Origin: a virus
Reading direction: 5' to 3' (one strand)
DNA: 64,000 nucleotides
Virus record (IMG/VR): IMGVR_UViG_3300008107_000033
Coordinates: 1 to 64,000 of that record
The first letter of the stretch is position 1, and each line of letters begins with the position of its first letter. Shown one piece after another: positions 1,460-51,867 of the stretch. Made by a program: the position numbers and the translations under genes. The notes beneath the pieces were generated by a model. That model was not told where the DNA came from. It did not search any database and was given only the letters and a program-made list of their open reading frames with translations.

Positions 1460-2266
1460 ATGCCGGTAGAAGAACAACAAATAAATATAACAATTCCCAA
1501 AGAAAAGCTTGAGCAATGGAATATCTTTTTTGCTCTTCCTTGTTATGATTCTCATGTAACAGAGCCTTTTATGATGAGCTTTTTGCAAGCTTGTCTATTC
1601 TTTAAAGAAATAGGATTAAAGTACTCAATTTGTACAATTTCTGATTCTTTAATTAATCGCGCAAGAAATAACCTTGTTGCTAAGTTTATGGGTAATCCTG
1701 AATTTACCCATATGATATTTATTGATGTTGACTTGCAATTTGATAAAGAATCAATATTAAAACTTCTATGGCATGATAAAGATGTAATGACAGCATCTTA
1801 TCCAATTAAAGAGATTAATTGGGACAAAGTAAAAGAAGGTGCTGTTGGCGAGGTTGAAGCAAAGGACCTAATGGAGTATGGCACAAGATATGTTGTTCAT
1901 ATGACTAAACCTGGAGAAAATCAACTGAACATTGACAATGGAGCAATAGAGTGTTATGAGGCTGGTACTGGCTTTATGTTAATTAAGCGTCAAGTATTTG
2001 ATAAGATGTTTAAGAAATATAAGAAATTAAAATACAAAGACGATACTGGTGCGTTAACTGGGGCAGAAATAGACAATTCTTACGCTTTGTTTAATTCATA
2101 TGTAGATGATGATGGAAGATTTTTATCCGAAGATTATGGCTTTTGTAGATATTGGCAAAAGATGGGTGGAAAAATTTGGGTTGACCCAACAATTAACCTG
2201 ACACATTTTGGAAGAATAAAATATTCTGGTAAAATGTTACAGTTTCTTAAAAGAATAACACAATAA
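1460..2266 (+). CDS. GT-A fold glycosyltransferase (phage type)
   Basis: SLINRARN, FIDVD (DxD), GTGFMLIKR and LSEDYGFC...W...GGKIWVDP...H motifs. Confidence 0.85.
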   Translation: MPVEEQQINITIPKEKLEQWNIFFALPCYDSHVTEPFMMSFLQACLFFKEIGLKYSICTISDSLINRARNNLVAKFMGNPEFTHMIFIDVDLQFDKESILKLLWHDKDVMTASYPIKEINWDKVKEGAVGEVEAKDLMEYGTRYVVHMTKPGENQLNIDNGAIECYEAGTGFMLIKRQVFDKMFKKYKKLKYKDDTGALTGAEIDNSYALFNSYVDDDGRFLSEDYGFCRYWQKMGGKIWVDPTINLTHFGRIKYSGKMLQFLKRITQ

Positions 2267-2345: not shown

Positions 2346-5300
2346 ATGGCCCGTTTAAGAACAGAAACCGCACCAGAAATTACAGTAAATGATGAGTCTG
2401 TCGTTTTTAAGGCAGCTTCTGGAGCAACTGCACCACTGATAGAATTCAAAAACTCTAGTGGTGATGTTGTTGGAAACATAGCAGCAAACGGAGTAATGAA
2501 TGTTGTTTCCGTAAATGCATCAAATGCAGGAACAACTTCTACAGACCTTGCTACAAGAGGTTATGTAGATAATTTATTCGCAGGAGTTAACTGGCACGAT
2601 CCAGTTGCATTGGCCACTATAGCAGCACTCCCAACATGTAATTATAATAATGGAACAGATGGTGTTGGCGCAACTTTAACGGCAACAGCAAATGCTGAAC
2701 TAACTATTGATAGCGGAACTGTTTCAGTTGGCTATTCTATTCTGGTAAAGAACCAGGCAGACGCAAAGCAAAATGGAATTTATTCAGTAACTGCTACTGG
2801 CGCAGTCGATGCAGTGTGGGTTCTCACTAGAAGAGCAGACTCGGATAATAGTCCAGCAGGGGAAGTTCAAGTGGGAGACGCTTGCTTTGTTATTGGTGGA
2901 TCAGTTAATGTTAACACTGGTTTTATTTTAACTGGTACAGCAACTGGGGCTGGTGACTCTATTGTGTTTGGTACGGATAATTTGTCGTACGCACAATTTA
3001 CTGGCACTGGTGCATTTACAGCTGGTGATGGCTTGATGATATCAAATACCTCTGTAAATGTTGTCACTGCAAACTCAAGCAGAATAGTAGTTAATGCCGA
3101 TAGTATTGACTTAGCCAATGTGTCGCAAACAAATACCAACACAGGAGCTAGTACTAATTTTATTAATGAAGTTTCTTTAGATTCTTACGGTAGGGTTACT
3201 GGGGTGCATAAATCAGATGTTTCATTTTCTGGCTATGCAACATTAGCAAATCCAACTTTTACTGGTGCACCATTAGCCCCAACGGCAAACGTTAATACTA
3301 ATAATACTCAGATAGCTACAACCGCTTTTGTCCTTGCACAAATAACCGATGATGCCATCGTTAAAACAGCAGCTAATGCAAAAGGTGATATTTTTACGGC
3401 TACTGCTAATGATACTCCAGCAATATTAACTGTTGGAGGTGATGGATACAGACTTGCTGCAAATTCATCTGCAGAAACTGGACTTTCTTGGGAAGTCTAT
3501 AATTTAGACAGTCTTAGTGATGTAGCAATAAATACTCCTTCATCTGATCATTTTTTGCGCTATAACGGTTCAGCTTGGGTTAACGCAAATGCAAAAGAAA
3601 TTTTAAATCTTACTGATCTATTAGATGTAAATATAACATCAGCATCAACTGATCAATTTCTTAAGTATAACGGTTCAGCTTGGGTTAATGATTTAATTGA
3701 TTTAGGAACTGATACAACTGGAAACTACGTTTCAAACGTATCTAGTGGGACTGGAATTACAGTTACCCACACTCCCGGTGAAGGTTCAAGCGCATCAATA
3801 GCTATTAATACAGCAGTAACAGCTGACTTGACAACTGCTCAAACTTTAGCTAATAAAACATTTACTACTCCAGATATAGGTGTTGCAACCGCAACAAGTG
3901 TTAATAAATTAATCATTACAGCTCCAGAAACGTCCGCTACATTAACACTAGCAAATGGAAGTTCCTTTATAACCTCTGGCGCATTTAACACAACCGTTAC
4001 AGCAACAGCAAATACTTCAGTAACTTTTCCAACAACTGGAACTTTATATGGAACAGCATCTGGAAGTATTACCTCATCTCAAATAGCAACTTCTGTTTCT
4101 GATGAAACAGGAACTGGAAACTTAGTATTTTCTGACTCTCCGGTATTAGTCACTCCAAATATTGGAACTCCATCATTTGGAAACTTAACAAGTGCTACAG
4201 GTCTTCCTATTTCTACTGGTGTATCTGGTTTAGGAACTGGTGTTGCAACTTTCTTAGCAACTCCTTCTTCGGCAAACTTAATTGCAGCACTAACTGATGA
4301 AACTGGTACTGGTCTTGCTGTTTTCAATACAAGTCCTGATATCAATACTTCTATAACAACATCTAGTGCAACCTTCAATCTCATCAATACAAACGTCACT
4401 ACATTGAATTTTGCTGGTTCAGCAACAACTTTAGCTATAGGAAATACATCTGGTAACACTACATTAAATGGAAACGTAGTGGTTGGCGGAAGCTTAACAG
4501 TTAATGGAGCAAACACAATAATCAATGCCAACACTCTAGTCGTTGCAGACAAAAACATTCAAATGGCTAACTTGGAAGTTCAAACAAATACAACTGCAGA
4601 TGGTGGTGGGATCCTGCTTCATGGTGCAACCGATAAGACATTTTATTGGTACGATGCATCAGCAGCATGGACTTCATCAGAGCATTTAGATTTAGCATCT
4701 GGTAAAGTTTATAAGATTAATAATGCAAATGTGCTTACCAGCACAACACTTGGCTCTAGTGTTACCGGTTCTTCATTAACATCATTTGGAACAAGCCCTA
4801 CATTAACAACACCTATTATTTCTTCAGGTGGAGCAACATTTAATGGTTCGACATCTGGAACAGTATTACTAGTCGCAAACGCTATTGCTGGCACTACTAC
4901 AATCACACTTCCAGCGACTACGGGAACTGCAGTTACCACAGGTGACAATGGTACAGTCACAAGCACAATGATTGCTAATTCAACAATTGTCAATAATGAC
5001 ATCAGCGCTTCTGCAGCAATTGAACTATCAAAATTAGCAACAAGTACAGCTGGAAATATCATCGTTTATAATGCCTCGGGTGTTCCAACATCTGTTACAG
5101 AGACTGGTGATGTAACGATCTCTGACACTGGCGTAACAGCTATTGCTTCTGGTGTCATTGTAAACGCTGACATAAGCGCAAATGCTGCGATAGACCAAGG
5201 TAAGATAGCAGATTTAACTTTAAATCAGCAAACTACTAGCTATACTTTAGTCTTAACAGATAAAAATAAAATGGTTGAAATTTCAAATGCTTCTGCCACT

Positions 5301-5516
5301 ACTCTTACGGTTCCATCCAATGCAAACGTAGCTTTCCCAGTGGGCTCAACTTTAACAATTCTTCAGACTGGTTCAGGACAGACTACTCTTACCCCTCAAT
5401 CTGGAGTTACGATTAACGCAACCCCTGGTCTTAAGTTGCGCACACAGTGGTCATCTGCTACAATTATAAAGAGAGCCACAGATACGTGGGTAGCACTAGG
5501 AGATTTGGCGGCATAA
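2346..5516 (+). CDS. Long tail fibre protein
   Basis: 1056 aa, rich in Thr/Ser/Ala/Gly/Asn; fibre modules ATRGYVD, LVKNQ.DAKQNGIY, PTFTGAP.APTA, NTQIATTAFV, two YNGSAWVN, two DETGTG; C-terminal tip ending WVALGDL. Confidence 0.85.
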   Translation: MARLRTETAPEITVNDESVVFKAASGATAPLIEFKNSSGDVVGNIAANGVMNVVSVNASNAGTTSTDLATRGYVDNLFAGVNWHDPVALATIAALPTCNYNNGTDGVGATLTATANAELTIDSGTVSVGYSILVKNQADAKQNGIYSVTATGAVDAVWVLTRRADSDNSPAGEVQVGDACFVIGGSVNVNTGFILTGTATGAGDSIVFGTDNLSYAQFTGTGAFTAGDGLMISNTSVNVVTANSSRIVVNADSIDLANVSQTNTNTGASTNFINEVSLDSYGRVTGVHKSDVSFSGYATLANPTFTGAPLAPTANVNTNNTQIATTAFVLAQITDDAIVKTAANAKGDIFTATANDTPAILTVGGDGYRLAANSSAETGLSWEVYNLDSLSDVAINTPSSDHFLRYNGSAWVNANAKEILNLTDLLDVNITSASTDQFLKYNGSAWVNDLIDLGTDTTGNYVSNVSSGTGITVTHTPGEGSSASIAINTAVTADLTTAQTLANKTFTTPDIGVATATSVNKLIITAPETSATLTLANGSSFITSGAFNTTVTATANTSVTFPTTGTLYGTASGSITSSQIATSVSDETGTGNLVFSDSPVLVTPNIGTPSFGNLTSATGLPISTGVSGLGTGVATFLATPSSANLIAALTDETGTGLAVFNTSPDINTSITTSSATFNLINTNVTTLNFAGSATTLAIGNTSGNTTLNGNVVVGGSLTVNGANTIINANTLVVADKNIQMANLEVQTNTTADGGGILLHGATDKTFYWYDASAAWTSSEHLDLASGKVYKINNANVLTSTTLGSSVTGSSLTSFGTSPTLTTPIISSGGATFNGSTSGTVLLVANAIAGTTTITLPATTGTAVTTGDNGTVTSTMIANSTIVNNDISASAAIELSKLATSTAGNIIVYNASGVPTSVTETGDVTISDTGVTAIASGVIVNADISANAAIDQGKIADLTLNQQTTSYTLVLTDKNKMVEISNASATTLTVPSNANVAFPVGSTLTILQTGSGQTTLTPQSGVTINATPGLKLRTQWSSATIIKRATDTWVALGDLAA
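3561..3688 (+). repeat. 23-nt direct repeat encoding the duplicated YNGSAWVN fibre module
   Basis: tataacggttcagcttgggttaa occurs at 3561-3583 and 3666-3688. Confidence 0.85.
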
Positions 5517-5517
5517 T

Positions 5518-5916
5518 ATGGCAGCAGATAGTGGAAAAAGAGAAAAAAGAAAAGCAGCTAAACCCACAATTGCGGCTGGTACAACACAGGCAACAGCTAA
5601 TACTACAATCACTAATGCTGGGTTTGTTGTTGGCTCTGTAACAACTACGGCTACAACAGATCCAGCATTAAACGCAAACGTTACGCCAGCGGTAACCGAT
5701 ACAGTAGTAACCCCATTGGGAACTGCAATAAATTACACTGTAGGAGCTTTTTCTCCTCCAGCCTTCTTTTCTCCTCCAGCCTTCTTTTCTCCTCCATCTT
5801 TCTTTGCCCCTCCAGCCTTCTTTGCCCCTCCAGGATTTTTTGGCCCTCCAGGATTTTTTGGCCCTCCAGGATTTTTTGGCCCTCCAGGATTTTTTAGACC
5901 ACCATCATTTAAATAA
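5518..5916 (+). CDS. Small protein: basic N-terminus, PASTA-like middle, C-terminal (x-Pro-Pro-x-Phe-Phe)9 tail
   Basis: Starts 1 nt after the fibre stop; TQATANTTITNAGFVVGSVT...GTAINYTV resembles a PASTA repeat; the repeat tail is read directly from the sequence. Confidence 0.75.
   Translation: MAADSGKREKRKAAKPTIAAGTTQATANTTITNAGFVVGSVTTTATTDPALNANVTPAVTDTVVTPLGTAINYTVGAFSPPAFFSPPAFFSPPSFFAPPAFFAPPGFFGPPGFFGPPGFFGPPGFFRPPSFK
5749..5910 (+). repeat. 18-nt tandem repeat, 9 units (cct cca nnn tty ttt nnn)
   Basis: Pro-Pro codons start at 5755, 5773, 5791, 5809, 5827, 5845, 5863, 5881 and 5899. Confidence 0.95.
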
Positions 5917-5918
5917 TT

Positions 5919-6560
5919 CTAAAAAGAATTAACAGCATAAAAAGCTGGAATAACCCATCTAACCCCAGATAAAACCGGGGTTACACCGTGCATATAATTT
6001 ATATCTCCAGGATGAGAAACTGCCATACCAGCTACTGGTTTTATTTTTAGGCCATGTTGTGTATAAAAAAGTTCTCCGCCAATATAATTATCGTTAATAT
6101 AAAATAATGAATTGATATCATAATCATCAAAACCATTTGTTCTTCCATCTTGCAATTGTTTGTCGGCATGGGCGATTTGAAAGTCACCAGGTCTCCAGCA
6201 AACTATTACTGGTTTTCTTTTTTCAACAATACAATTATAATTTTCATTTATTGTTGCAGTCATTTTATCAATATAAAAATCTATTAAATCATAAATACTT
6301 TTGTCTAATCTTTCTATAATATAAGAGCTGCAAGTTCTATTTAACCACACATCTGCACCATATTTTATGGTACCATCTTCATGAGATTCACTCTCTTTTG
6401 AATTATCCCATTCGTCTATTTTATTTACAAAATTCTGTAAAGATAATAGATCAGTTTTATCAATAAAATTGTCTATAATTTTAATATTATCTGTAGAATT
6501 TCCAAATGTTCCAGGTAAAACTTTCCACGGTTTTTCATCTGTTATTTCTTCATTAAACAT
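5919..6560 (-). CDS. 2OG-Fe(II) dioxygenase, prolyl 4-hydroxylase-like
   Basis: HAD...YINDNYIGGELFY...HGVTPVLSGVRW (HxD...H...R); GGAG SD on the minus strand; the only credible minus-strand gene. Confidence 0.88.
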   Translation of the reverse strand: MFNEEITDEKPWKVLPGTFGNSTDNIKIIDNFIDKTDLLSLQNFVNKIDEWDNSKESESHEDGTIKYGADVWLNRTCSSYIIERLDKSIYDLIDFYIDKMTATINENYNCIVEKRKPVIVCWRPGDFQIAHADKQLQDGRTNGFDDYDINSLFYINDNYIGGELFYTQHGLKIKPVAGMAVSHPGDINYMHGVTPVLSGVRWVIPAFYAVNSF

Positions 6561-6578
6561 AATTAGCTCTCCGAAAAT

Positions 6579-6614
6579 TGTGGTATAATAGACTCCGCCT
6601 TAAATTATATCACA
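6579..6614. promoter_or_regulatory. Paired extended -10 promoters on opposite strands
   Basis: TGTGGTATAAT (+, 6579-6589) and TGTGATATAAT (-, 6604-6614) lie in the gap between the divergent oxygenase genes. Confidence 0.6.
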
Positions 6615-6636
6615 CATCTATGGGAGAAAGATAATT

Positions 6637-7389
6637 ATGAATCCGCAATATGTTTTTGATCCAAGATTAGGAATAATTATATACAGAAATGCTATTAAAA
6701 ACCCAGAAGTTTTAATAGAAAAACTTGAGTCTGGATTAGCAAAATGTGATTATGATATATTTAAATGGGACTTAGGGACAACTGGAGACCTAAATAAAAA
6801 TAGAGATTATAGAAACTGTAGTGATTTTAAAATTCATCCAGATAATACAGTTTGGGAAAATTTTCCAAAAGCATCAGATATTAAAGAGGTATGCGAAGAA
6901 GTAAAATCTCCATTACTTGAATGTCTATATGACTATGAAGTTAGACATGGGATAAAAATGGATTTTATGGAAAGTTTTAATTTTGTTAAATATATTCCTG
7001 GTGAACACTTTTCTGCTCACGCAGATCATGGGTATAGCTATAATTGCACAGTTTCATCTGTAGCTTATTTGAATGATGATTATGACGGTGGAGAACTGGT
7101 TTTTGACATTTTAAAATTGAAGATAAAACCAAAGGTTGGAGATATAATATTATTCCCATCTACATATATCTATGCACATAGTTCTATTCCAGTTATATCT
7201 GGAACAAAATACGCAGTTGTAACAATGTTTGACTACAATGAAAGAACTCATAAGGGATTTCAATATGGGCATAATTTAGATGGATCGCCAGCCGACACTA
7301 ATGCAGGAAGACCACCAAGATTTTATGGTAGAATGCCTGGTCCAATAAGAAGCTTAGATTCAGATTATTTATTTTCAGGAATTAAATGA
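6637..7389 (+). CDS. 2OG-Fe(II) dioxygenase, prolyl 4-hydroxylase-like
   Basis: FVKY.PGEHFSAHADH, YLNDDYDGGELVF, FPSTYIYAHSSIPVISGTKY. Confidence 0.9.
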   Translation: MNPQYVFDPRLGIIIYRNAIKNPEVLIEKLESGLAKCDYDIFKWDLGTTGDLNKNRDYRNCSDFKIHPDNTVWENFPKASDIKEVCEEVKSPLLECLYDYEVRHGIKMDFMESFNFVKYIPGEHFSAHADHGYSYNCTVSSVAYLNDDYDGGELVFDILKLKIKPKVGDIILFPSTYIYAHSSIPVISGTKYAVVTMFDYNERTHKGFQYGHNLDGSPADTNAGRPPRFYGRMPGPIRSLDSDYLFSGIK

Positions 7390-8123
7390 CAAAAGTAATT
7401 CTTTCAAGAACCCACAATAATCCAGTTGAGATAAGACAGTCTCGAGTCAAAAGAGATTGGATGGATAAAACTCATAACAAACATGCATATCATTGCACCC
7501 CAGTTACTACAGCAAATGTTAGTGGATGGGAAATGATCCTTCCTGAAGAATTAGTTGTAATTTGGGATGGAGGACCTAGTCCAGCTAGAATAATTAGCGG
7601 TGGAGTTTACAATGGTTTTCACTTCGCTCATTCAAATATACATGGAATGATATCTATTGCAACTGGTTGGGTGATAAACACAGAAGATGGTTATAGTTTA
7701 TGGACGACTGGTTCTCCAAATTATTATGTTGATGGAGCCTCACCTATGACAGCAAGTATCCCGAGCAGTTGGTGGCCAGATGAAATTCAAACAAATTGGG
7801 TAATTCATAAAATTAATGAACCGGTTATATTCCCTAAGGGAAGTCCATTTTTGTTTTTTAATATTTATCCAACTGACTTACTTCCAAGTGTGGAATTTGA
7901 AGTAGTTAATAGATGGGAAAATAAAGAACTTGAAAAATCAAGAGAAAAATATAATGAATTAAAAACGAAAAACTCACAAGAAAAACCATGGACATGGGTA
8001 AAGGGAATAAAAACTGGTTTAGACGCAGATAATAATAGAATTGGACCAGGGATGAAAAACTTACCAAAGTTAACTCAATTAGATAATACACTAGGAGAAA
8101 ACAATAATGATGAATTATACTGA
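7386..8123 (+). CDS. DUF6065-like protein
   Basis: KRDWMD...HAYHCTPVTTAN..GWE and GSPN...G..P motifs recognised from memory of DUF6065. Confidence 0.65.
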   Translation: MTKVILSRTHNNPVEIRQSRVKRDWMDKTHNKHAYHCTPVTTANVSGWEMILPEELVVIWDGGPSPARIISGGVYNGFHFAHSNIHGMISIATGWVINTEDGYSLWTTGSPNYYVDGASPMTASIPSSWWPDEIQTNWVIHKINEPVIFPKGSPFLFFNIYPTDLLPSVEFEVVNRWENKELEKSREKYNELKTKNSQEKPWTWVKGIKTGLDADNNRIGPGMKNLPKLTQLDNTLGENNNDELY

Positions 8124-8997
8124 TGTAAAACCAAAACACTTGGGTGGTGGAGTTGTCCTTTTTGAGAATACCGCAACTATTGATTGGGATTGGTTTTATA
8201 AATTTTGTGAAAAAAGTATAGAAAAAGAAAAAGCAGAAATGTACTCACTTGCAATTCATCCAAATACTGGTGAGCAAGTTTATGTAAATGAAAGTGGGTA
8301 TTATTTTGCAACTGAAATGATTGAAAAAATGCCATATAGGGCATCAAAAATACACCAAGATCAAGAACTTCAGGCAATTAAAACTCTATCTTTTATTGAT
8401 GAAGTAAAATACAAGTGTTTATTAAAGTATATAGAAATGTTTCCATTGGTTTATAAATGTGTTTGGTGGCAGAGTAGGGGTCACATAACTCAATATAAAT
8501 CAGATGTTTATATGGGCCCTCACGCTGATATACAAACCGACTATATGTATGGCTTGCCGCACCCAAACCAACAATTGGCTATGAAAAATGTGGTTGGCAC
8601 AATATTCTATGCCAATGATAGTGTTGAGTCAGATGATGAACTTAATGGAAAAAACTTTACTGGTGGCTCTCACTATTTTTCTTATTTAGATATAGATTAT
8701 TCCCCTAAAAAAGGAGACATATTAATGTTTCCCAGCGATTATATGGCAGCACATGAGGTAAAACCAACTGGTAGTGGCACAAGATATGCGTATCTTGGAT
8801 GGTATTGCCATGGAACACCAAATAAAGCTTTAGGTGAAAGCGTTCTTGACCCACTACAAGATCCAGGTAATGCAGTCAATACAGTTAATGTTTATCTTCC
8901 ATTCCTTAGACAAGATTACCTAAAACACCTCGAAGGTAAAGGATACAAACAGGATTCAATGCAGTATATTGTAGCTTTAAATATGGAACAGTATTAA
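8107..8997 (+). CDS. 2OG-Fe(II) dioxygenase
   Basis: MGPHAD, FTGG, MFPSDYMAAHEVKP...RY. Confidence 0.88.
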   Translation: MMNYTDVKPKHLGGGVVLFENTATIDWDWFYKFCEKSIEKEKAEMYSLAIHPNTGEQVYVNESGYYFATEMIEKMPYRASKIHQDQELQAIKTLSFIDEVKYKCLLKYIEMFPLVYKCVWWQSRGHITQYKSDVYMGPHADIQTDYMYGLPHPNQQLAMKNVVGTIFYANDSVESDDELNGKNFTGGSHYFSYLDIDYSPKKGDILMFPSDYMAAHEVKPTGSGTRYAYLGWYCHGTPNKALGESVLDPLQDPGNAVNTVNVYLPFLRQDYLKHLEGKGYKQDSMQYIVALNMEQY

Positions 8998-8999
8998 TA

Positions 9000-9221
9000 A
9001 TGAATATTTCTGAAGAAGAAATTAATTTAATTAAAGAAAAAACTTCTTTATACTTAACTAAGTCTATTCATAAATTGTCTTATATATTAGGCATGGATCC
9101 AAAGCAGATAATGAGTGCATCGTCTTTAAATGATTTAATAGATGATAACGCATCGCAAATGCAAAAAGATGCGATTACCTCACTATACAATCAAGTCATC
9201 GCATTAAAAAAACTTAGTTAA
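9000..9221 (+). CDS. Small helical protein, cassette gene A (paralogue of 14287-14502)
   Basis: YLTKSIHKLSYILGMD versus YLEKSITTLSAILGID. Confidence 0.7.
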   Translation: MNISEEEINLIKEKTSLYLTKSIHKLSYILGMDPKQIMSASSLNDLIDDNASQMQKDAITSLYNQVIALKKLS

Positions 9222-9222
9222 T

Positions 9223-9429
9223 ATGGAACCAAAAGAAATTAGCGAAAAACTTATTCATGAGTTTACAGAAAAAATGGATAATGTAGTACCTACGTATTCT
9301 GATGAAGATGAAAATATTGTAATGGAAAATGGCGGAACCACAAGGGAGTATGTTTTAACAAACGAGTTTGCTGAAATAAATAGATATATAATTCTTCCTT
9401 TATCCCCAAGCATAGAAGATTTAACATGA
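9223..9429 (+). CDS. Small acidic protein, cassette gene B
   Basis: Tightly coupled ORF; occupies the same position as 14504-14695 in the second cassette. Confidence 0.6.
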   Translation: MEPKEISEKLIHEFTEKMDNVVPTYSDEDENIVMENGGTTREYVLTNEFAEINRYIILPLSPSIEDLT

Positions 9430-9710
9430 GCTACAATGCAATTGAAGACTTAAAATATATAGATAGACAAATTAGCTTCTATTTATACTGTGTTGGCTTA
9501 GATGGCTCTATTGCAAATGCCTATAGTATAGATGAAATCATAACAGCAACTAGATCTATAACCATAGCCCCAATAGATGATGTTGAATCTGGTAAGTTAA
9601 ATTTAGGCCAAGATCCTTCTTATTTATATTTAAAGAATCAAAGAATTTCTCTAATAGGAAACATAAGAAGATTGTGGCACATGCGTCAAATTGCGATTGG
9701 AACAATTTAA
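9426..9710 (+). CDS. Small protein, cassette gene C (paralogue of 14679-14960)
   Basis: YNAIEDLK...YLKNQRISLIGNIRRLW versus YDAEADLK...YIKKQNISLSRGIRRAW. Confidence 0.7.
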   Translation: MSYNAIEDLKYIDRQISFYLYCVGLDGSIANAYSIDEIITATRSITIAPIDDVESGKLNLGQDPSYLYLKNQRISLIGNIRRLWHMRQIAIGTI

Positions 9711-9711
9711 T

Positions 9712-10416
9712 ATGATGTATGAAAAAGATTATTTTGACAATTTAGCAAGATTGATTAAATATACAGATGTTGAATCCATTGAAGATTCAATGCAAAAAAG
9801 TAAAAATGTTAAGTCGTATTTAGATACATTGTCTCTTGACAAGAGAAAAGTTGCAGCAGGAATGGATTTTTTAATTTGGTATTTTGATGTATTTAGTCAA
9901 GAAAGTCATTTTTGGAATACCAATCAAGCCTATTATTATGCCGCAAATACTCATGAGTTTGGCTTTTTAACGGCCAACCCTAAAACCTCTCTTATGACAC
10001 TTCCAGCATTCAATACGGGATTGGCTAGATTAATGCAGAAGAAATCAGAACTAACTTTATTAAATAATTATCAATTAAATTTATTTGAAAAAATAATAAA
10101 AAAAGATAATGAAAACTGGAATTATAATATAATCTCAATGCAAGATATAGAGTCTGAAAAAGGTGGAAAATATGATTTTATATGCATGAGCATACATGAC
10201 GTATTGCACGATCCTGAGGTAGTTATTAAATTTTACAATATGTTAAATAAAAATGGGACAATAATGATGTTGTATACTGGTACGGATTCTTTGTATAAGG
10301 ATGAGTCTGTTTTTACCGATTTTTACGAAGTGCATGAATATCTTAAAAATATAGAAAATTCTTGCGTATATCATAACCCAACTGGCGCTGCTGTTACATA
10401 TGCAGTAAAATTGTAA
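9712..10416 (+). CDS. Divergent class I methyltransferase-like protein, cassette gene D
   Basis: YDFICM...MLNKNGTIMM resembles Rossmann MTase motifs, but there is no clear GxGxG; paralogue of 14950-15684; start moved to ATG 9712. Confidence 0.55.
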   Translation: MMYEKDYFDNLARLIKYTDVESIEDSMQKSKNVKSYLDTLSLDKRKVAAGMDFLIWYFDVFSQESHFWNTNQAYYYAANTHEFGFLTANPKTSLMTLPAFNTGLARLMQKKSELTLLNNYQLNLFEKIIKKDNENWNYNIISMQDIESEKGGKYDFICMSIHDVLHDPEVVIKFYNMLNKNGTIMMLYTGTDSLYKDESVFTDFYEVHEYLKNIENSCVYHNPTGAAVTYAVKL

Positions 10417-10429
10417 TACTATATATATT

Positions 10430-11107
10430 ATGATTGTTTTGGATAATTTTATAAAAGATCAAATTTTACTAGATGAAATTAAACATACCAAAGACTTCTT
10501 CCCAGAGTCAATGGGGGACGAAGAGCGCATCGCAACCGTTTTAAATGGTTATCATGATGAACTATGCGATTGCTTTGCGCCATATATGTTTTGGGATGGC
10601 TGGCACAAATCAGACACAAATACTCCAAGGAAAAGATTAATTAAAGCAATTTGGGAAAATAATCTACCTTTTCCAATTGAAGAATTATGTGGATTTGAAT
10701 ATTGGACTAGAACTTTTAAGCCAGGACAATTCTTAGATGTTCACGTAGATGAAGATACTTTTTTATACGCAGACACCAAGGTTTTTAGGGGCCCAAAGAT
10801 CGGCTGCGTATATTATCCAAGTACAAACGATGTTGTTGGTGGTTTTCTAGAACTTCATCCCAAAGCCATAATCGAAGACACTTATAATGCGCTTGAGAAA
10901 GAAAATATGGACCCTCTAATTGCGCCAGTTGAAATGAGGGAAAGAATAGCTTGCTTGCCGAATAGGTTAATCATTTTCGATGCCGGTCACATCATACATA
11001 ATACAACTCCTCCTATTAGTGGTGTTAGAAGGGTTGTTGTTATTAATGTTTGGCATAAAGATAGCCCACCCTCTGCACTGGCAACTGGAAAATTTTATTA
11101 TGAATAA
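10430..11107 (+). CDS. 2OG-Fe(II) dioxygenase
   Basis: EYW...LDVHVDED, GGFLE, NRLIIFD..HIIH...R...INVW. Confidence 0.85.
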   Translation: MIVLDNFIKDQILLDEIKHTKDFFPESMGDEERIATVLNGYHDELCDCFAPYMFWDGWHKSDTNTPRKRLIKAIWENNLPFPIEELCGFEYWTRTFKPGQFLDVHVDEDTFLYADTKVFRGPKIGCVYYPSTNDVVGGFLELHPKAIIEDTYNALEKENMDPLIAPVEMRERIACLPNRLIIFDAGHIIHNTTPPISGVRRVVVINVWHKDSPPSALATGKFYYE

Positions 11108-11708
11108 TTTAAAAGTTGTTAATTTATTTTCATTAAATGTATATACATCTTATTTAGAAAATATAAATAATGATATTATTTTAAATGAAATTAAAGAACA
11201 TTCTGGTTCCATACCAAATGTAAAAGATCCTTACCCAGCGCATACATTTTATGAGGACAGAACATTTCCATTTGAAAAATCTGAATGCAAAAAGTTATTT
11301 AAGGAAATAGAAAAAGCAGTAAGTTTTACTATTGATAGAGAAATGAAAATAGATTCTATATGGACTTTATCGCTAGAAGAGGGTCAATCAGTAACTGCGC
11401 ATACTCACAAGATTAATACTCATTTGTATCCAGAAGAGTATTTTTCTGTCTCGTATTATATAAATGCACCAAAAAATAGCGCAGATTTAATCTTTACTAC
11501 GTCACACTGTAATTCAATTGAAACATCAACTGCAATTACTCCAGAAACAGGAATGTTAGTTATATTTAATTCTTATATAAACCACATGACCAATAGACAT
11601 TATAACAAAGAACAAAGAGTTGTTGTTAGCGCAAATCTGAGCCCAGTAAACCGAAATGTTTTAGAAAATCCAGATTGGTCAGCATATACAGTGCCAAAGA
11701 ACTATTAA
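11100..11708 (+). CDS. Putative 2OG-Fe(II) oxygenase (HxH type)
   Basis: W......G.....HTH, SVSYYI, PETGMLVIFNSYINHMT...R.VVSAN; start moved to ATG 11100, which overlaps the previous stop. Confidence 0.8.
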   Translation: MNNLKVVNLFSLNVYTSYLENINNDIILNEIKEHSGSIPNVKDPYPAHTFYEDRTFPFEKSECKKLFKEIEKAVSFTIDREMKIDSIWTLSLEEGQSVTAHTHKINTHLYPEEYFSVSYYINAPKNSADLIFTTSHCNSIETSTAITPETGMLVIFNSYINHMTNRHYNKEQRVVVSANLSPVNRNVLENPDWSAYTVPKNY

Positions 11709-11721
11709 TTAAAGAGGAAAA

Positions 11722-12831
11722 ATGACAGTTACAAAAGATACCTATAAAGAATTTGTTGGAAATATAAAAGTTAATGATATAGATCCGATTATTAATGCTC
11801 CAGAAGTTGATTTTAACGCTGTTGATCATGTTGTTAAAAATAATAGTGACGTTATTTTTACTTGGGATTATTCACTTGTTAGAACTCAACTAAGAAAACT
11901 TTATGAAAAGGCTAAGAATAATCAATGGAATGGAGAGACTGCTCTTGACTGGTCTGTAAATGTAGATGTTGAGAAATCAGTAATTGAGGACTATTCTAAC
12001 TTTGGATCAAGCAGAGAAATGTCAGTATACAAGGGTAGTCCAGTTGAAAAGTGGGGAGACAAAGAGTGGTTGCAATTTGGCGTTGAAAGCAGAAAGTGGA
12101 TGATATCTCAATTCATACACGGAGAACAAGGTGCTCTAATATGTTCAGCAAAACTAACTCAAACATGCCCCTGGTATGACGGAAAACTGTATGCATCAAC
12201 TCAGGTGGTAGATGAGGCAAGACACATAGAGGTATTCGCTAAGTATGCAAATGAAAAATTGGGAGGAACACTTCCTTTTAATTGGCATATTCAAAGTTTA
12301 ATTGACGACACCATTGCTGATAATCGTTGGGATATGACTTATCTAGGTATGCAAATTATGGTTGAAGGTCTGGGGCTTGCATCAATGGCATATATGCGTG
12401 AACTGACAAATGAGCCTCTTCTAAAACAATTATTGCGCAATGTTATGGCAGACGAAGCTCGACACATATCATTTGGTGTTATTTCGCTAAAGGAAATATA
12501 CGCAGAGATGACAGATGTTGAAATAATGGAGCGTCAACAGTTTGCATATGAAGCAAGTATTAAGCTTGGAGAAAGAATGCTACAGCAAGAAGTATATGAG
12601 AAAATGGGTGTTAAGACAAAAGATATTGCTCCATTCTTACTCAATGATCCAGCACAAGCTTGGATACGAAAAATGCTTGCAGCAAAAATAGTTCCAAATG
12701 TTAGCAAACTTGGGTTGCTAGATAGAAACGGAGCATGGTTGAGAAGAAAGTTTGAAGAAATGGGAACTATAGAATTTGAAAATCTTGGAGATACAGAAGA
12801 AGAATTCTCAGCTTTTATTCACAGTTACTAA
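11722..12831 (+). CDS. Ferritin-like diiron oxygenase (AurF/N-oxygenase-like)
   Basis: HGEQGAL, DEARH twice and VEGLGL give the E...ExxH x2 diiron ligand pattern; LYEKAK..QW N-terminal motif; GAGG SD. Confidence 0.82.
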   Translation: MTVTKDTYKEFVGNIKVNDIDPIINAPEVDFNAVDHVVKNNSDVIFTWDYSLVRTQLRKLYEKAKNNQWNGETALDWSVNVDVEKSVIEDYSNFGSSREMSVYKGSPVEKWGDKEWLQFGVESRKWMISQFIHGEQGALICSAKLTQTCPWYDGKLYASTQVVDEARHIEVFAKYANEKLGGTLPFNWHIQSLIDDTIADNRWDMTYLGMQIMVEGLGLASMAYMRELTNEPLLKQLLRNVMADEARHISFGVISLKEIYAEMTDVEIMERQQFAYEASIKLGERMLQQEVYEKMGVKTKDIAPFLLNDPAQAWIRKMLAAKIVPNVSKLGLLDRNGAWLRRKFEEMGTIEFENLGDTEEEFSAFIHSY

Positions 12832-12832
12832 T

Positions 12833-13480
12833 ATGAAAACTCCTGATGATTTTAAAATAAATACAGTCTATTCTTATAATAGTCCAAATGATTTAAAGAA
12901 TTATTATAATGATTGGGCTCATGAATACGATGATTATACTAATCAGGTAAGTTATATCCTTCCACAAAAAGTGATTGAAATATTTTGTATGTATCAATTA
13001 AATCATAATTCTACGGTTTTAGATATTGGTTGTGGAACTGGATTAGCTGGTTATTTATTGGGAAAAATAAAACAAAATCTGTGGATAGAGGGAATAGATA
13101 TATCTGGATCAATGATTCAGATAGCAGCAAAAAAAATTAAACCAAATTTTAAGCCAACATATGATTGGATGATTGTTGAAGATTTTAAAAAGAATAAACT
13201 TCTACTAGAAAATCATTATGATGGAATTATAAGTGCTGGTACATTTACTCTCGGTCATTTGGATTCTAATGATTTAATAGATTCAATAAAATATTTAAAG
13301 AAAAATGGACTAGCAGTTATTAGCATAAAAGAAGATCACTTCATTGAAAATAATTTCAATGAAAAAATATCTCAAGCAAAAAGAAATTCTTTAATAAAAG
13401 ATGTAGAATATTTTAAGGTAAATTCTTATGATTCTTCTTTTTCAGCAGAATCAATAATAGTTAAGTTTTTAAGAGGGTAA
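12833..13480 (+). CDS. Class I SAM-dependent methyltransferase
   Basis: YNDWAHEYD, VLDIGCGTGLAG, GIDIS..M, YDGIISAGTF..GH; start moved to ATG 12833. Confidence 0.9.
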   Translation: MKTPDDFKINTVYSYNSPNDLKNYYNDWAHEYDDYTNQVSYILPQKVIEIFCMYQLNHNSTVLDIGCGTGLAGYLLGKIKQNLWIEGIDISGSMIQIAAKKIKPNFKPTYDWMIVEDFKKNKLLLENHYDGIISAGTFTLGHLDSNDLIDSIKYLKKNGLAVISIKEDHFIENNFNEKISQAKRNSLIKDVEYFKVNSYDSSFSAESIIVKFLRG

Positions 13481-13481
13481 T

Positions 13482-14261
13482 GTGCTAGAAGATTTAATGA
13501 AAATAAACGCTCCAAGAATATCTATATTTACTGACTTTCTTTCAAAAGAGGATTCAGAAATTATAAAGAAGTACTGCAGAGATAATAAAGATAATTTTCC
13601 ATTTGTTGGTTATGATTCCCCAATAAGATGGAAGGTCGAAGAGCATTCAAAATATCCAGAACTTAAATATGTAAAATCATTTCTTATCAGTGAAGAAGAA
13701 TATGAATTATATGTAAATGGAAAAATACCAGAACCTTATCCAAATGACAGTAAGCATGGTGATAATTATAATATATCAATGAAAGTTTTTGATGAAAGAG
13801 ATAAGCATCAAAAGTCTCCAGAAGAAAAATACACATCTTTGATACATTATGAAAAGTGGCCAAATGATGTATTGCAAAGTGCAACCTTTGATGCTTTAAC
13901 TAAATATTTAAATGGTGTTGTTAAGATTGTAAAGGATATTTATAACGTAGATTGTTTTAGCGAAAGTGGTCCATGGATTGCAGTTGCAAAAGAAGGTGGA
14001 TATATGAATATGCATTGTGACGGAACATTCATACACAACAGAGATGCTGTTACTCATTTTTCTTCAGTATATTATATAAATGATGACTATGAAGGTGGAG
14101 AGTTTAATATGCCGCTTATGGGTTTCAATCTTAAACCAAAAGAAAATTCTCTTCTTTTATTTACACATTCTTCACACGAAGACATGGCGCATGAAGTGAC
14201 TCCCGTTATTTCTGGTGATCGTTTTGTATCTCAGGGCTTCTTTGCGGTAAAGAAAGCATGA
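13482..14261 (+). CDS. 2OG-Fe(II) dioxygenase, prolyl 4-hydroxylase-like
   Basis: MHCD, YYINDDYEGGEF, AHEVTPVISGDRF. Confidence 0.88.
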   Translation: MLEDLMKINAPRISIFTDFLSKEDSEIIKKYCRDNKDNFPFVGYDSPIRWKVEEHSKYPELKYVKSFLISEEEYELYVNGKIPEPYPNDSKHGDNYNISMKVFDERDKHQKSPEEKYTSLIHYEKWPNDVLQSATFDALTKYLNGVVKIVKDIYNVDCFSESGPWIAVAKEGGYMNMHCDGTFIHNRDAVTHFSSVYYINDDYEGGEFNMPLMGFNLKPKENSLLLFTHSSHEDMAHEVTPVISGDRFVSQGFFAVKKA

Positions 14262-14286
14262 TACACTTATAGTTAAAGGAGAAAAT

Positions 14287-14502
14287 ATGCAATTAGGTCA
14301 ATACGATATTGATAGAGCAAAGTCACAAGCTAAATCTTATTTAGAGAAATCAATAACCACACTTTCTGCTATTCTTGGTATAGATGCAAACGATATTGAT
14401 TTAAAAAAAGCAAACCCATATCCAGAAGGAAGTCATTTGCACGCAGCTTACATTTGTTTATCTAATGAGATAAAAGCTTATAATAAACTTATTGGAGAAT
14501 AG
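14287..14502 (+). CDS. Small helical protein, cassette gene A'
   Basis: AAGGAG SD; homologous to 9000-9221. Confidence 0.7.
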   Translation: MQLGQYDIDRAKSQAKSYLEKSITTLSAILGIDANDIDLKKANPYPEGSHLHAAYICLSNEIKAYNKLIGE

Positions 14503-14503
14503 C

Positions 14504-14695
14504 ATGAGTGACATTGAAGATTTTGATTGGTCAAAAAGAGAAGGCGAATCTATAACAGATGTTCCAGATTGGGATAATGAAACAATAGAGTGGGATTCTT
14601 CTACTGGTATTTATTACGTAGCAGGAAAGCCTGTTAGTATGTGTCAAGGTGTAGCAATGTTTAAGGATGAAGAAAAAAATGACGACAAAGTATGA
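14504..14695 (+). CDS. Small acidic Trp-rich protein, cassette gene B'
   Basis: GGAG SD before ATG 14504; positional equivalent of 9223-9429. Confidence 0.6.
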   Translation: MSDIEDFDWSKREGESITDVPDWDNETIEWDSSTGIYYVAGKPVSMCQGVAMFKDEEKNDDKV

Positions 14696-14960
14696 TGCTG
14701 AAGCAGATTTAAAAATTAGATCTCAGCATCTAGCTTCTTTTATGTATATACTCGGAATAGATGAAGAAGATTTTTTAAAAACTACAATAGACGATCTCAT
14801 CTTATTGATTAGAGAAAGATACGCCTATGACCACGACATATCATTAGATATAGCTTCAAAAGAATATATAAAAAAACAAAATATATCTTTGTCTAGAGGC
14901 ATAAGAAGAGCCTGGTTTGATATCCAGTTTGCAACCTATGAGGTCAATAATGTCAAGTGA
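14679..14960 (+). CDS. Small protein, cassette gene C'
   Basis: Homologous to 9426-9710; the start is either 14667 or 14679. Confidence 0.7.
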   Translation: MTTKYDAEADLKIRSQHLASFMYILGIDEEDFLKTTIDDLILLIRERYAYDHDISLDIASKEYIKKQNISLSRGIRRAWFDIQFATYEVNNVK

Positions 14961-15684
14961 TAAAAGATATGAGCCGCAGATGTCTTTTGATTATACGAAA
15001 TGGGTATATGATTGGAAGGAATTTGCTCGCAAATCAACAAAAGAAGATGGCCCTGAGTCAGTAGCTATATCTAATTATCTTTTTAATGTTGTTGGCATAG
15101 ATAAAAGAAATATAGCCACTGGTGGGGCAAGTGACTATGAGTTCGTGATTCATTACCCAAGACCAGCACTGGCTGATTCTTACGGTCAATCTCAATGGAT
15201 GCCCATACTGCTTATTCAGGCTTTAATGGACATTAGTCCAAAGAAACGTATACTTGCACTTTCTGGTGGTCTTGATCGTTTTAGGCTAAAGCCATTTCAG
15301 GAAATATATAATTCACAAATTTATTTTTTAAATAATAAAAAATTGTCATTATATGAAAAATTTCAGTACGAAAATGCTCCTATAGAGTATGGAGTATTGA
15401 CCCAGCAATACTTGGAAAGTAACTATAACTTTACTTTTGACCTAATAATAGGTTGGTCTCAAGATATGGAGAATCCATTTATTCCAGTAGATTTGTATTT
15501 AGATAGACTGGAAAAAGGTGGTATTTTAATTATTCAAAATAGTTCTGACAGTGTTTTTCTGTATCAAAATGACACACAAGCATCCCCGGTATGGCAATAT
15601 CACCAGGATATAAAGTCAAGAGACGACTGCCATATGTATCACATTCCACTTTTTTATGGCATAACAATTGTTGTAAAGCAGTAA
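14950..15684 (+). CDS. Divergent methyltransferase-like protein, cassette gene D'
   Basis: IDKRNIATG versus LDKRKVAAG; FDLII...LEKGGILII; YHIP...IT.VVK versus YHNP...VT.AVK; GAGG SD before ATG 14950. Confidence 0.55.
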   Translation: MSSDKRYEPQMSFDYTKWVYDWKEFARKSTKEDGPESVAISNYLFNVVGIDKRNIATGGASDYEFVIHYPRPALADSYGQSQWMPILLIQALMDISPKKRILALSGGLDRFRLKPFQEIYNSQIYFLNNKKLSLYEKFQYENAPIEYGVLTQQYLESNYNFTFDLIIGWSQDMENPFIPVDLYLDRLEKGGILIIQNSSDSVFLYQNDTQASPVWQYHQDIKSRDDCHMYHIPLFYGITIVVKQ

Positions 15685-50697: not shown

Positions 50698-51867
50698 ATG
50701 CCTATTTATGGAGAAAAAGAAAAATCAGAAATATTAGTTAGTGTATTAAATTCACTAGAACTCAATGCTGGTATTTCTGCTGCCTATCCCGGGTCTATTG
50801 CTAGGGCTTTTGCTGAAGCTTTTAGTGCAGAAATAGCAGATTTATATTCATCTTTAAACTTTAGCCTTAAACAGGGAGCTCTTTCTACTGCAAGTGGAAG
50901 AAATTTAGATTTAATTGGTGAGCTTTATGGAGTTGTGAGAAAGCAAATATCTGACGCCGCTGCTCTTGAAAGACAATCTTTTAACATAGAATTTTTTATA
51001 GAAACTCCATACAGTCAAAATATAACAATTCCTGGTGGAACATATCTCTACACGGATGTAGATAGCTATGCAATTAGACAGTATAGATTTAAATTAAATG
51101 GTGATATTACCATAGTTGCTGGAACGACTAGGGCATATGGTTTGGCAATTCCGGATTTTAATGAAAATACATATGTTGCCCCAACAGGTTCTATAACTAA
51201 ACATAACTTTATAGCACCACCAGGTGTAGTGGCATATTGTAGTAATACAAAAGAAATATATTCAGCAATTAATTCTGAGTCAGATGATAATTTTAGAAGA
51301 AGAATAGTATCATCTATTAAGACAAGATCGGCAGGCACGACAGAGTCTGTTAGGTTTGCTGTTCTTTCAGTCAAAGGCGTAAGAGATGTTAGAATAAGAG
51401 AAAGCGCCTATGGCGTAGGATCTTGTGATGTGATTGTAGTTCCAGAATCTTTGTCTGGAATTAAAAGAATGCCAGACACAATACTGTCTGCCATAGCATC
51501 TGTTAAGCCAGCTGGTGTAAGATTTAATGTTAGAATAGCTGAACAAATACCAGTAGATGTTCAGGTCAGTGTCACTGTAGCTTCTGCAGCAAATGATACA
51601 ATAGAAGCAGGAATAAAGAATCAAGTTGCGCTCTTTATTAAGAGATATTTAAATTCTCTTACAATAGGAGATACTGTTTCAGTTTCTGAAATAGAAAGAC
51701 AAATTAGACTATCTTCCGACTTTGTAAGATATGCTACTATTAATTCTTTAAGTGCAAACGGTGAATCTATACCGGTAAAAGATTTTACTCCTTCAAGTGA
51801 CAAAGTTTACCCAACTGCTGGAAGTGTGAGCGTATTATCTGTTATAATGGGTCAATCAAATTATTAA
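50698..51867 (+). CDS. Baseplate J / gp6-like wedge protein
   Basis: ASGRNLDLIG...GV.R, ESDDNFRRRI, GTTESV..A...V.GV.DV, VKPAGV. Confidence 0.88.
   Translation: MPIYGEKEKSEILVSVLNSLELNAGISAAYPGSIARAFAEAFSAEIADLYSSLNFSLKQGALSTASGRNLDLIGELYGVVRKQISDAAALERQSFNIEFFIETPYSQNITIPGGTYLYTDVDSYAIRQYRFKLNGDITIVAGTTRAYGLAIPDFNENTYVAPTGSITKHNFIAPPGVVAYCSNTKEIYSAINSESDDNFRRRIVSSIKTRSAGTTESVRFAVLSVKGVRDVRIRESAYGVGSCDVIVVPESLSGIKRMPDTILSAIASVKPAGVRFNVRIAEQIPVDVQVSVTVASAANDTIEAGIKNQVALFIKRYLNSLTIGDTVSVSEIERQIRLSSDFVRYATINSLSANGESIPVKDFTPSSDKVYPTAGSVSVLSVIMGQSNY
51840..51848 (+). promoter_or_regulatory. Possible extended -10 promoter (TGTTATAAT) for the phosphoesterase
   Basis: Inside the 3' end of baseplate J, about 45 nt before ATG 51895. 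Confidence 0.35.

Follow-up and report, generated by a model that had tools for sequence, protein, structure and literature searches.

Among the 'auxiliary' genes of aquatic phages that lack an explanation, those for prolyl 4-hydroxylase (P4H)-like 2-oxoglutarate (2OG) oxygenases are some of the commonest, and the question of what such enzymes act on is raised by the first 64,000 bases (here called the window) of the IMG/VR virus record IMGVR_UViG_3300008107_000033. The parent record is 105,622 bases long, with an estimated completeness of ~50% (CheckV), and the window encodes a myovirus-type tail sheath and baseplate wedge. Near the start of the window a short gene, whose product (P0001) ends in an array of Pro-Pro-x-Phe repeats, is followed directly by a cluster of putative oxygenases and other enzymes (Table 1). 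The analysis described here asked if the repeat gene and the oxygenases are linked beyond this one phage and, if so, whether the repeat is a credible substrate.

A first-pass annotation of the window had described a 132-residue open reading frame (ORF) that was coupled to a tail fibre gene and ended in nine hexapeptide repeats. This description was upheld. The ATG of the repeat gene (ORF 5518-5916) lies one base past the stop codon of the fibre gene (2346-5516), and the C-terminus of P0001 consists of SPPAFF (twice), SPPSFF, APPAFF, APPGFF, GPPGFF (three times) and RPPSFK, that is, nine xPPxF units, eight of which end in FF. The nine units span positions 5749-5913, and an 18-bp tandem array with scores of 128-151 was detected at 5749-5895 by Tandem Repeats Finder. 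When the whole window was scanned for Pro/Phe-richness the repeat ORF was the single positive; the adjoining fibre protein is poor in Pro.

The part of P0001 that is encoded by 5518-5754 precedes most of the array. No Pfam family, PASTA included, was matched by the window protein's own sequence. PASTA (PF03793) was matched by two of nine aligned family members (E = 5.6e-10), which align with the first 79 residues of the window protein, and the top three matches of the repeat-family profile against the PDB were PknB PASTA domains (E = 0.005-0.04). For the window sequence this evidence is indirect; it hints that the N-terminal part of the protein is a divergent PASTA-like domain.

Searches for relatives defined the conserved motif. 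In a set of 5.8 billion proteins 21 homologues of P0001 were found, and 16 of these, when aligned with it, shared a basic N-terminus, the junction ...LTDT..PLGT.INY..G.FSPP.FF and a repeat array of varying length. When IMG/VR was scanned with a back-translated pattern, at least 275 repeat places were confirmed. Across 902 units from 87 distinct ORFs, which carried between 3 and 28 copies, the first position was Ala, Ser or Gly in 96% of units (Gly in 150), the fourth was Gly in 516 (57%), with Arg, Val, Leu or Thr also occurring, and the last was Phe in 91%; the penultimate Phe was preset by the search pattern. Variant repeats in homologues included PFF, PPFF, PFFPPFF..., SPPFFPPGFF (period 10), PPYF and PPHF. 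The conserved theme is one or two Pro residues followed by Phe-Phe. Since Phe-Phe is kept as strongly as Pro-Pro, the initial description of the motif as generally Pro-rich was replaced by Pro(-Pro) plus Phe-Phe. A collagen triple helix was considered as a model and rejected: Gly does not occupy every third residue, and the collagen register is ruled out because the variants PFF, PPFF and SPPFFPPGFF exist, with periods of 3, 4 and 10 and no small residue.

Co-occurrence of PPxFF-repeat ORFs with the oxygenases, which had been suggested as a check when the locus was first annotated, was borne out in both directions. In the forward direction every ORF of 78 repeat loci was mapped against the window proteins, the ORFs of related loci having been called mechanically. 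Among the 55 loci with at least 4 kb of downstream sequence, 49 carried both DUF6065 and at least one oxygenase (median 5) within 10 kb, with DUF6065 starting at a median of 1.5 kb past the repeat gene. The six exceptions were each the upstream, second fibre-repeat pair of a phage whose other pair abuts the oxygenase cluster 11-16 kb further on. A fibre homologue was present upstream of the repeat gene in 72 of 79 loci.

For the reverse direction the DUF6065 profile gave at least 590 viral places. A first reverse test, which used a strict PPxF regular expression, was positive in only 40 of 77 new DUF6065 loci. This result was misleading because the negatives carry variant Pro/Phe repeats or are truncated contigs: all of the negative loci that were mapped and had sufficient upstream sequence contained a homologue of the same protein, with variant repeats, between the fibre and the oxygenases. 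A composition-based scan subsequently detected a Pro/Phe-rich ORF in 145 of 164 fetched DUF6065 loci. The remainder were contigs cut at or inside the gene, or distant DUF6065 homologues with no nearby oxygenase; of the latter, the gene neighbours of two (L162 and L165) were inspected, and these look cellular.

The clustering of 740 oxygenase ORFs from related loci into orthogroups (single linkage, identity threshold of 38%) revealed that only two orthogroups, OG0 and OG1, were universal. Both were located within 3.5 kb of DUF6065 in 94 of 96 loci, and OG0, OG1 and DUF6065 were the only three universal partners of the repeat gene. The placement of OG1 differed between clades: in the clade of the window it is inverted and lies between the repeat gene and OG0, whereas in a distant clade it follows DUF6065. 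That OG1 was inverted and moved, yet stayed close, indicates that the linkage survived rearrangement. Furthermore, the DUF6065 sequences fell into 36 clusters at 70% identity and 5 at 50%, which argues that the linkage is old. These results established that the linkage between repeat and oxygenases is real, reciprocal and conserved over about 36 lineages and five deep clades.

The first-pass annotation had treated the genes downstream of the repeat as one tailoring island of ~10 kb. This view did not hold, since everything apart from the three universal genes was confined to the window clade, namely four other oxygenases, a diiron enzyme, a methyltransferase, two cassettes of small genes (a-d cassettes) and a GT-A-fold protein. 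In place of these accessories the distant clade carried three different oxygenase orthogroups.

Six 2OG-Fe(II) dioxygenases had originally been counted in the window. Five ORFs scored above the Pfam cut-off of 27 bits, four with PF13640 (2OG-FeII_Oxy_3; 29.6-44.6 bits) and one with PF13759 (2OG-FeII_Oxy_5; 38.3 bits); the sixth (10430-11107) fell below the cut-off, although its HxD...H...R residues were seen. A pattern search, made without alignment to a solved enzyme, recovered the iron/2OG pattern, HxD/E...H with a basic residue about 10 positions after the second His, in all six ORFs except 11100-11708. No nucleic-acid oxygenase family was matched by the oxygenases in the Pfam scan. The best PDB matches of the core enzymes OG0 and OG1 were the PKHD hydroxylase PiuC, Bacillus anthracis P4H, the P4H of Paramecium bursaria chlorella virus 1 (PBCV-1; structure 5c5t) and the lysyl hydroxylase LH3, so that by sequence comparison their nearest solved relatives appear to be mostly protein hydroxylases.

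The domains that accompany the repeat in relatives were consistent with a structural role. In the distant clade the repeat forms the middle of proteins of ~440 residues, and of up to ~1000 residues, whose N-terminal part contains fn3 domains, a conserved peptide and, in some, PASTA, and which end in a domain of ~165 residues. One FN3-repeat-Hint relative is encoded at L041:9353-10678. The profile of this C-terminal domain best matched the bacterial intein-like (BIL) domain 2lwy (E = 1.1e-8), and many inteins too. Intein_splicing was matched in 9 of 13 of these Hint-type members, mostly below the Pfam cut-off; the domain starts with Cys or Ser, and most members have His-Asn near the end. In some relatives (L035, L067 and L063) the Hint domain is degenerate, with Ser for Cys at the start and no terminal His-Asn; such copies may be inactive or may work differently. 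A literature search found no Hint domain behind a Pro/Phe repeat in a phage fibre module.

In another relative (L023/L089; L023:4717-5370) the repeat is followed by Peptidase_S74 (39.6 bits, against a cut-off of 22) from residue 114. The domain begins directly after ...PPGFK with the residues S-D-L-R-D-K, and Peptidase_S74 is expected to cut at a Ser...Lys motif where the domain starts. The window protein has neither a Hint nor an S74 domain and ends at the Lys that is equivalent to that of ...PPGFK in the S74 relative. Several homologues stop plainly at ...PPxFK as the window protein does, and others have a short Cys-rich tail. Through either of two unrelated self-cleaving domains, or through a simple stop codon, the repeat array is predicted to end up at the mature C-terminus.

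The oxygenase cluster was bracketed by fibre genes in both clades; at a distant locus it was flanked by an Mtd_N-type fibre, an S74-bearing fibre and a Laminin_G_3 protein. Taken together, the domain architectures and the bracketing by fibre genes suggest that the module belongs to host recognition. At four loci (L114, L118, L119 and L122) a collagen-like G-X-Y fibre gene lies directly after the oxygenase cluster (e.g. L119:14414-15544), and the next protein has PASTA, PFF repeats and Hint (e.g. L119:15546-16520). The G-X-Y fibre is possibly another hydroxylase substrate.

No match to the island DNA was found by megablast among 50,697 cultured phage records, and neither DUF6065 nor the FN3-repeat-Hint protein was matched in the cultured phage records by tblastn. 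The closest cultured-phage homologues of the oxygenases were cyanophage 2OG oxygenases of cryptic role (27-32% identical). DUF6065 had nine matches in prokaryote genomes, comprising seven contigs of metagenome-assembled genomes (MAGs) that carry the same phage module and the two distant, cellular-looking homologues L162 and L165. The PPxFF pattern had only two matches in 185,579 prokaryote genomes, and because both were out-of-frame, high-GC artefacts the Pro/Phe repeat is essentially phage-specific.

These data are best explained by a host-recognition module, conserved in a large group of uncultured myovirus-like phages, with the gene order fibre, repeat protein, two oxygenases and DUF6065. 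As to its function, we think it somewhat probable, on balance, that the repeat protein is an accessory of the virion-surface fibre whose array is hydroxylated, likely on Pro, by OG0 and OG1, with DUF6065 helping and the clade-specific enzymes decorating the product. The role of the repeat as substrate, the prolyl hydroxylation, the location on the virion and the purpose of the modification are what we infer from the genomic pattern. Translation of the repeat protein would be coupled to that of the fibre in the infected cell, and the two core oxygenases would hydroxylate residues of the repeat, with proline the likeliest target. DUF6065 might serve as a non-catalytic helper or have another helper role. 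In the window clade the extra oxygenases, the diiron enzyme, the methyltransferase or methyltransferases and the GT-A protein may further decorate the repeat. The protein would be mounted on the virion through its conserved N-terminus, with its PASTA-like or FN3 domains turned towards the host surface along with the hydrophobic repeat tail in its modified form.

Several points weigh against this proposal. The matches of the core oxygenases to solved hydroxylases were weak (E = 6e-4 to 0.05). Gene linkage indicates shared function, not an enzyme-substrate relation, and the enzymes could instead act on the neighbouring fibres. A repeat built only from Pro, Phe and small residues would hardly seem to need five to eight different oxygenases, and the dUTPase-like fold predicted for DUF6065 could hint at a nucleotide ligand. 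The counts overstate the number of independent cases, since many of the loci are near-duplicates of a single phage, and each scan was inspected for its best 80 loci only. In addition, the module is carried by no cultured phage, and the evidence for the substrate relation is genomic.

The alternative that survives best takes up the second of these points: the oxygenases and DUF6065 would modify the tail fibres or other virion proteins (by hydroxylating Lys, Asn or Asp, for example), and the repeat protein would merely belong to the same fibre complex, unmodified, for instance as an assembly factor, a linker or an adhesin. That the cluster has fibre genes to either side in both clades fits this account, as do the presence of the lysyl hydroxylase LH3 among the nearest solved relatives and the collagen-like G-X-Y fibre genes that follow the cluster at some loci. 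The fibre genes are, however, far more variable than the position of the repeat gene, which always lies between the fibre and the enzymes; the window fibre offers little Pro; and the repeat motif has been maintained over deep divergence. We therefore regard modification of the fibres in place of the repeat as unlikely, although it is the alternative to be taken most seriously.

A second alternative concerns DUF6065. Its presence in the island had been proposed in the first-pass annotation and was confirmed by Pfam (Table 1). The AlphaFold 2 (AF2) model, with a predicted local distance difference test (pLDDT) score of 68, consistently had dUTPases as its best fold matches (Foldseek E = 1e-4; VIA-align Z = 9.2, root-mean-square deviation of 3.1 Å over 128 residues). 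dUTPases have a trimeric fold with five conserved catalytic motifs; none of these motifs was recognised by eye in the DUF6065 family consensus. Invariant residues of the family include H33, C37, R23 and W25. The two cellular DUF6065 homologues (L162:3746-4522 and L165:7920-8708) scored 200-264 bits against the Pfam model and had no oxygenase nearby. The neighbours were a flavin amine oxidase, a formylglycine-generating enzyme (FGE)-sulfatase-like protein and a uracil-DNA glycosylase (UDG) in one, and a thioredoxin-like protein and DUF4174 in the other, and these two neighbourhoods gave no functional clue to DUF6065.

The dUTPase-like fold of the model and the unrelated redox or UDG contexts of the cellular homologues would suit enzymes that act outside the virion, on the host envelope, a small molecule, or nucleotides or DNA, with the adjacency to fibres reflecting only a shared hypervariable region. 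The cryptic role of the cyanophage oxygenases that are the nearest cultured-phage homologues, at 27-32% identity, and the halogenase-like and glycosyltransferase genes carried by some islands point the same way. Such a substrate is hard to square with a reciprocal, near-exceptionless linkage to one peculiar repeat protein. Moreover, no dUTPase motif was recognised in the DUF6065 consensus, and the oxygenases match a P4H-like Pfam family and no nucleic-acid oxygenase family. An action outside the virion is accordingly judged improbable.

The initial annotation had weighed a modified structural protein against a ribosomally synthesised and post-translationally modified peptide (RiPP)-like pathway, in which each repeat would serve as a core peptide to be modified, excised and released, and had leaned towards the former since neither a protease nor a transporter was visible. 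Both the observation and the preference held. No protease or transporter domain was detected among the island ORFs scanned against Pfam; in relatives the proteins that carry the repeat also contain folded FN3 or PASTA domains, and their Hint or S74 domains would release the array whole; and it sits between fibre genes, in a structural module, with a copy number of 3-28. A short repeated motif beside oxygenases and methyltransferases, and the small unexplained ORFs of the a-d cassettes, are features that a RiPP pathway would share, but we consider such a pathway very improbable. PPX motifs stall ribosomes, and 2OG oxygenases hydroxylate ribosomal proteins and translation factors. The 9-28 consecutive X-Pro-Pro-X motifs of the repeat should cause such stalling and need elongation factor P (EF-P), and the enzymes might aid their translation by modifying EF-P or ribosomal proteins; this idea, which is compatible with the linkage data, merits hardly any credence, as it leaves the five to eight oxygenases, DUF6065 and the single-Pro (PFF) variants unexplained.

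Hydroxylation of the repeat by OG0 and OG1 is thus the reading that we prefer, and it can be extended to a bolder one. The protein may represent an undescribed class of modified appendage, in which a Pro-Phe-Phe 'aromatic zipper' receives hydroxyl groups and, in certain clades, methyl groups or sugars through a dedicated set of several oxygenases and a helper of dUTPase fold, and is released by Hint or S74 domains to form a sticky or rigid host-binding element. We put this forward tentatively, as possible but in its entirety rather doubtful.

Table 1. Features of the repeat locus and its surroundings (positions in the window)
Feature	Position	Strand	Details
GT-A-fold glycosyltransferase-like protein (PHROG 1574)	1460..2266	+	directly upstream of fibre gene; window clade only
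Tail fibre protein, 1056 residues	2346..5516	+	tblastn matches to annotated tail fibre proteins of cyanophages and others
Pro/Phe-repeat fibre-associated protein (P0001)	5518..5916	+	132 residues; basic N-terminus, PASTA-like part, nine xPPxF[F/K] units, end ...PPSFK
Core oxygenase OG1, P4H-like 2OG-Fe(II)	5919..6560	-	PF13640, 29.6 bits; H131-x-D...H191...R201; FYINDNYIGGE; orthologue of L041 oxC
Core oxygenase OG0, P4H-like 2OG-Fe(II)	6637..7389	+	PF13640, 44.6 bits; H128-x-D...H181...K191
DUF6065, core member	7386..8123	+	PF19541, 129 bits
Accessory oxygenase OG5	8107..8997	+	PF13640, 37.8 bits; H139-x-D...H216...R226; window clade only
Cassette copy 1	9000..10416	+	small ORFs of 73, 68 and 94 residues; 241-residue protein (9691-10416)
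Accessory oxygenase OG6	10430..11107	+	PF13640, 21.5 bits (cut-off 27); H105-x-D...H187/190...R200
Accessory 2OG-FeII_Oxy_5 protein OG8	11100..11708	+	PF13759, 38.3 bits; no canonical HxD/E, H-T-H instead
Ferritin-like diiron oxygenase, borderline AurF-like, accessory	11722..12831	+	AurF, 30.0 bits (cut-off 29.6); two D-E-A-R-H (ExxH) motifs
Class I S-adenosylmethionine (SAM) methyltransferase, accessory	12776..13480	+	nine methyltransferase Pfam families, best 8.3e-10
Accessory oxygenase OG7	13482..14261	+	PF13640, 41.8 bits; H178-x-D...H237...R247; YYINDDYEGGE
Cassette copy 2	14287..15684	+	small ORFs of 71, 67 and 97 residues; 255-residue paralogue (14917-15684)

The remaining enzymes named in the first-pass annotation stood to differing degrees. 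The AurF-like diiron enzyme was matched by AurF barely above the cut-off (30.0 against 29.6 bits) and its ExxH motifs were seen; the further weak matches of this ORF (11722-12831) were to different ferritin-like oxidases, an R2-like ligand-binding oxidase and an aldehyde-deformylating oxygenase. Where one clear and two divergent methyltransferases had been listed, the ORF at 12776-13480 was indeed clear, and its likely start is the ATG at 12833, just past the stop codon of the diiron gene. The other two, the 241- and 255-residue cassette proteins, were backed only by a weak language-model (Atlas) lead to class I methyltransferases (0.90-0.92); a profile search of these two proteins against the PDB returned no methyltransferase. 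The 241-residue protein may have a degenerate methyltransferase fold. The two proteins are paralogues that are 23% identical (E = 1e-12).

The cassettes are part of a larger duplication. A five-gene unit, made up of an oxygenase, three small ORFs of about 70, 68 and 95 residues and a protein of ~250 residues, is present at 8107-10416 and again, diverged, at 13482-15684. The first and third small ORFs have a ...YL..LS.ILG(I/M)D... motif in common and look like paralogues of each other. The cassette ORFs had no Pfam match and, in a PHROG scan that covered all but the two 'b' ORFs of 67-68 residues, no PHROG match. At another locus (L126:1265-4379) a 517-residue flavin-dependent-halogenase-like protein (GGGATGW), a 180-residue protein and a 337-residue glycosyltransferase-like protein are encoded between two oxygenases, upstream of DUF6065.

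The upstream glycosyltransferase proposed in the first-pass annotation was recovered by structure prediction. The protein at 1460-2266 had no Pfam, PDB-sequence or NCBIfam match. Its AF2 model was confident (pLDDT 90), and the top Foldseek matches were A197 of Sulfolobus turreted icosahedral virus (STIV), the glycosyltransferase domain of LH3, ColGalT1 and Mnn9 (E = 1e-7 to 5e-6, probability 1.0), with TM-scores of only 0.42-0.48. Residues D89 and D91 (D-V-D) were invariant among homologues. By its model the protein is predicted to have a GT-A glycosyltransferase fold with a DxD motif. It is conserved far above its neighbours: among near viral relatives its homologues share 84-92% identity where the fibres share only 40-76%. 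The homologue in the MAG contig L157 is 65% identical. More than 537 homologues were found; the 120 that were listed were all at least 56% identical and unannotated.

The baseplate wedge protein of the window (50698-51867) had its closest cultured-phage matches at ~25% identity, mostly in phages of Gram-positive hosts (Staphylococcus, Bacillus and Enterococcus). Together with the PASTA-like domain, this similarity hints that the host of the window phage is Gram-positive. A promoter and terminator scan was uninformative at the locus, the promoters scoring no better than in shuffled sequence. A literature search found no paper on the module, on DUF6065 or on PiuC with 2OG.

The interest of the module lies chiefly in the substrate question. 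It provides the first concrete candidate substrate for the 'cryptic' prolyl hydroxylases of phages and, if confirmed, a first context for DUF6065. Since two oxygenases are paired over deep divergence with a single candidate substrate that is simple and unusual, the question is open to direct test. If the preferred reading is true, enzymatic hydroxylation of a phage virion protein would be established and the cryptic phage prolyl hydroxylases would gain their first defined substrate; Hint-mediated processing would be added to phage fibre biology, and the phage repeat would be a natural Pro/Phe repeat material, a counterpart of synthetic Hyp-Phe-Phe (Hyp, hydroxyproline) self-assembling peptides.

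Among known systems PBCV-1 offers a close parallel. It too encodes a P4H-like 2OG oxygenase, whose structure (5c5t) is among the solved relatives of a window core oxygenase, together with short Pro-rich tandem-repeat proteins as possible substrates. It differs in being a eukaryotic virus with a single enzyme and PAPK-type repeats, and we know of no report that its P4H clusters with a substrate; the module described here links two to eight oxygenases and DUF6065 to one Pro/Phe-repeat gene in the tail-fibre region of a phage. Hydroxylation of Pro-rich viral repeats by the PBCV-1 P4H has been reported (Eriksson et al. 1999, as cited in the survey PMC9301287); the same survey states that the role of P4H-like oxygenases of phages 'remains cryptic' (PMC9301287). 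The clusters of 2OG oxygenases in T4-like cyanophages resemble the module in containing the nearest cultured homologues (27-32%) and multiple paralogues per genome, but DUF6065 and the FN3-repeat-Hint protein were absent from all of the cultured phage records searched.

Collagen and the collagen-like fibres of phages share with the module X-Pro-Gly sites in most repeat units, a C-terminal trimerising or self-cleaving domain (Peptidase_S74) behind the repeat in one relative and, in the window GT-A model, a resemblance to the hydroxylysine glycosyltransferase domains of LH3 and ColGalT1. The difference is that in the window family the first repeat position is Gly in only 150 of 902 units and that the repeats with periods of 3, 4 and 10 have no small residue. 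In plant extensins and arabinogalactan proteins (AGPs) and in protist Skp1, as proposed here, a P4H-like enzyme and then a glycosyltransferase act on a Pro-rich sequence. In contrast, the GT-A protein of the module is limited to the window clade, outside the universal core, and, unlike extensins, the repeat has no Ser-Pro(n) motifs and has Phe-Phe as conserved as Pro-Pro. With BIL/Hint and Peptidase_S74 proteins the similarity is that relatives of the window protein have one of these domains at the C-terminus, whereas the window protein has neither and stops exactly where S74 would be expected to cut.

The residue pattern itself is best known from synthetic peptides. In such peptides Pro hydroxylation alters hydrogen bonding and material properties, and an aromatic zipper holds the stiff fibrils together (PMC8113556, PMC12766473); TPPGFF is a model phase-separating and fibril-forming peptide (PMC12766473, PMC10777412). 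Pro-Phe-Phe, Hyp-Phe-Phe and TPPGFF have the same pattern of residues as the phage repeat, a likeness that is one of analogy only, since these are synthetic tripeptides or hexapeptides studied in vitro. By that analogy, the activity of the PBCV-1 P4H and the behaviour of TPPGFF make it plausible that the phage repeat is hydroxylated.

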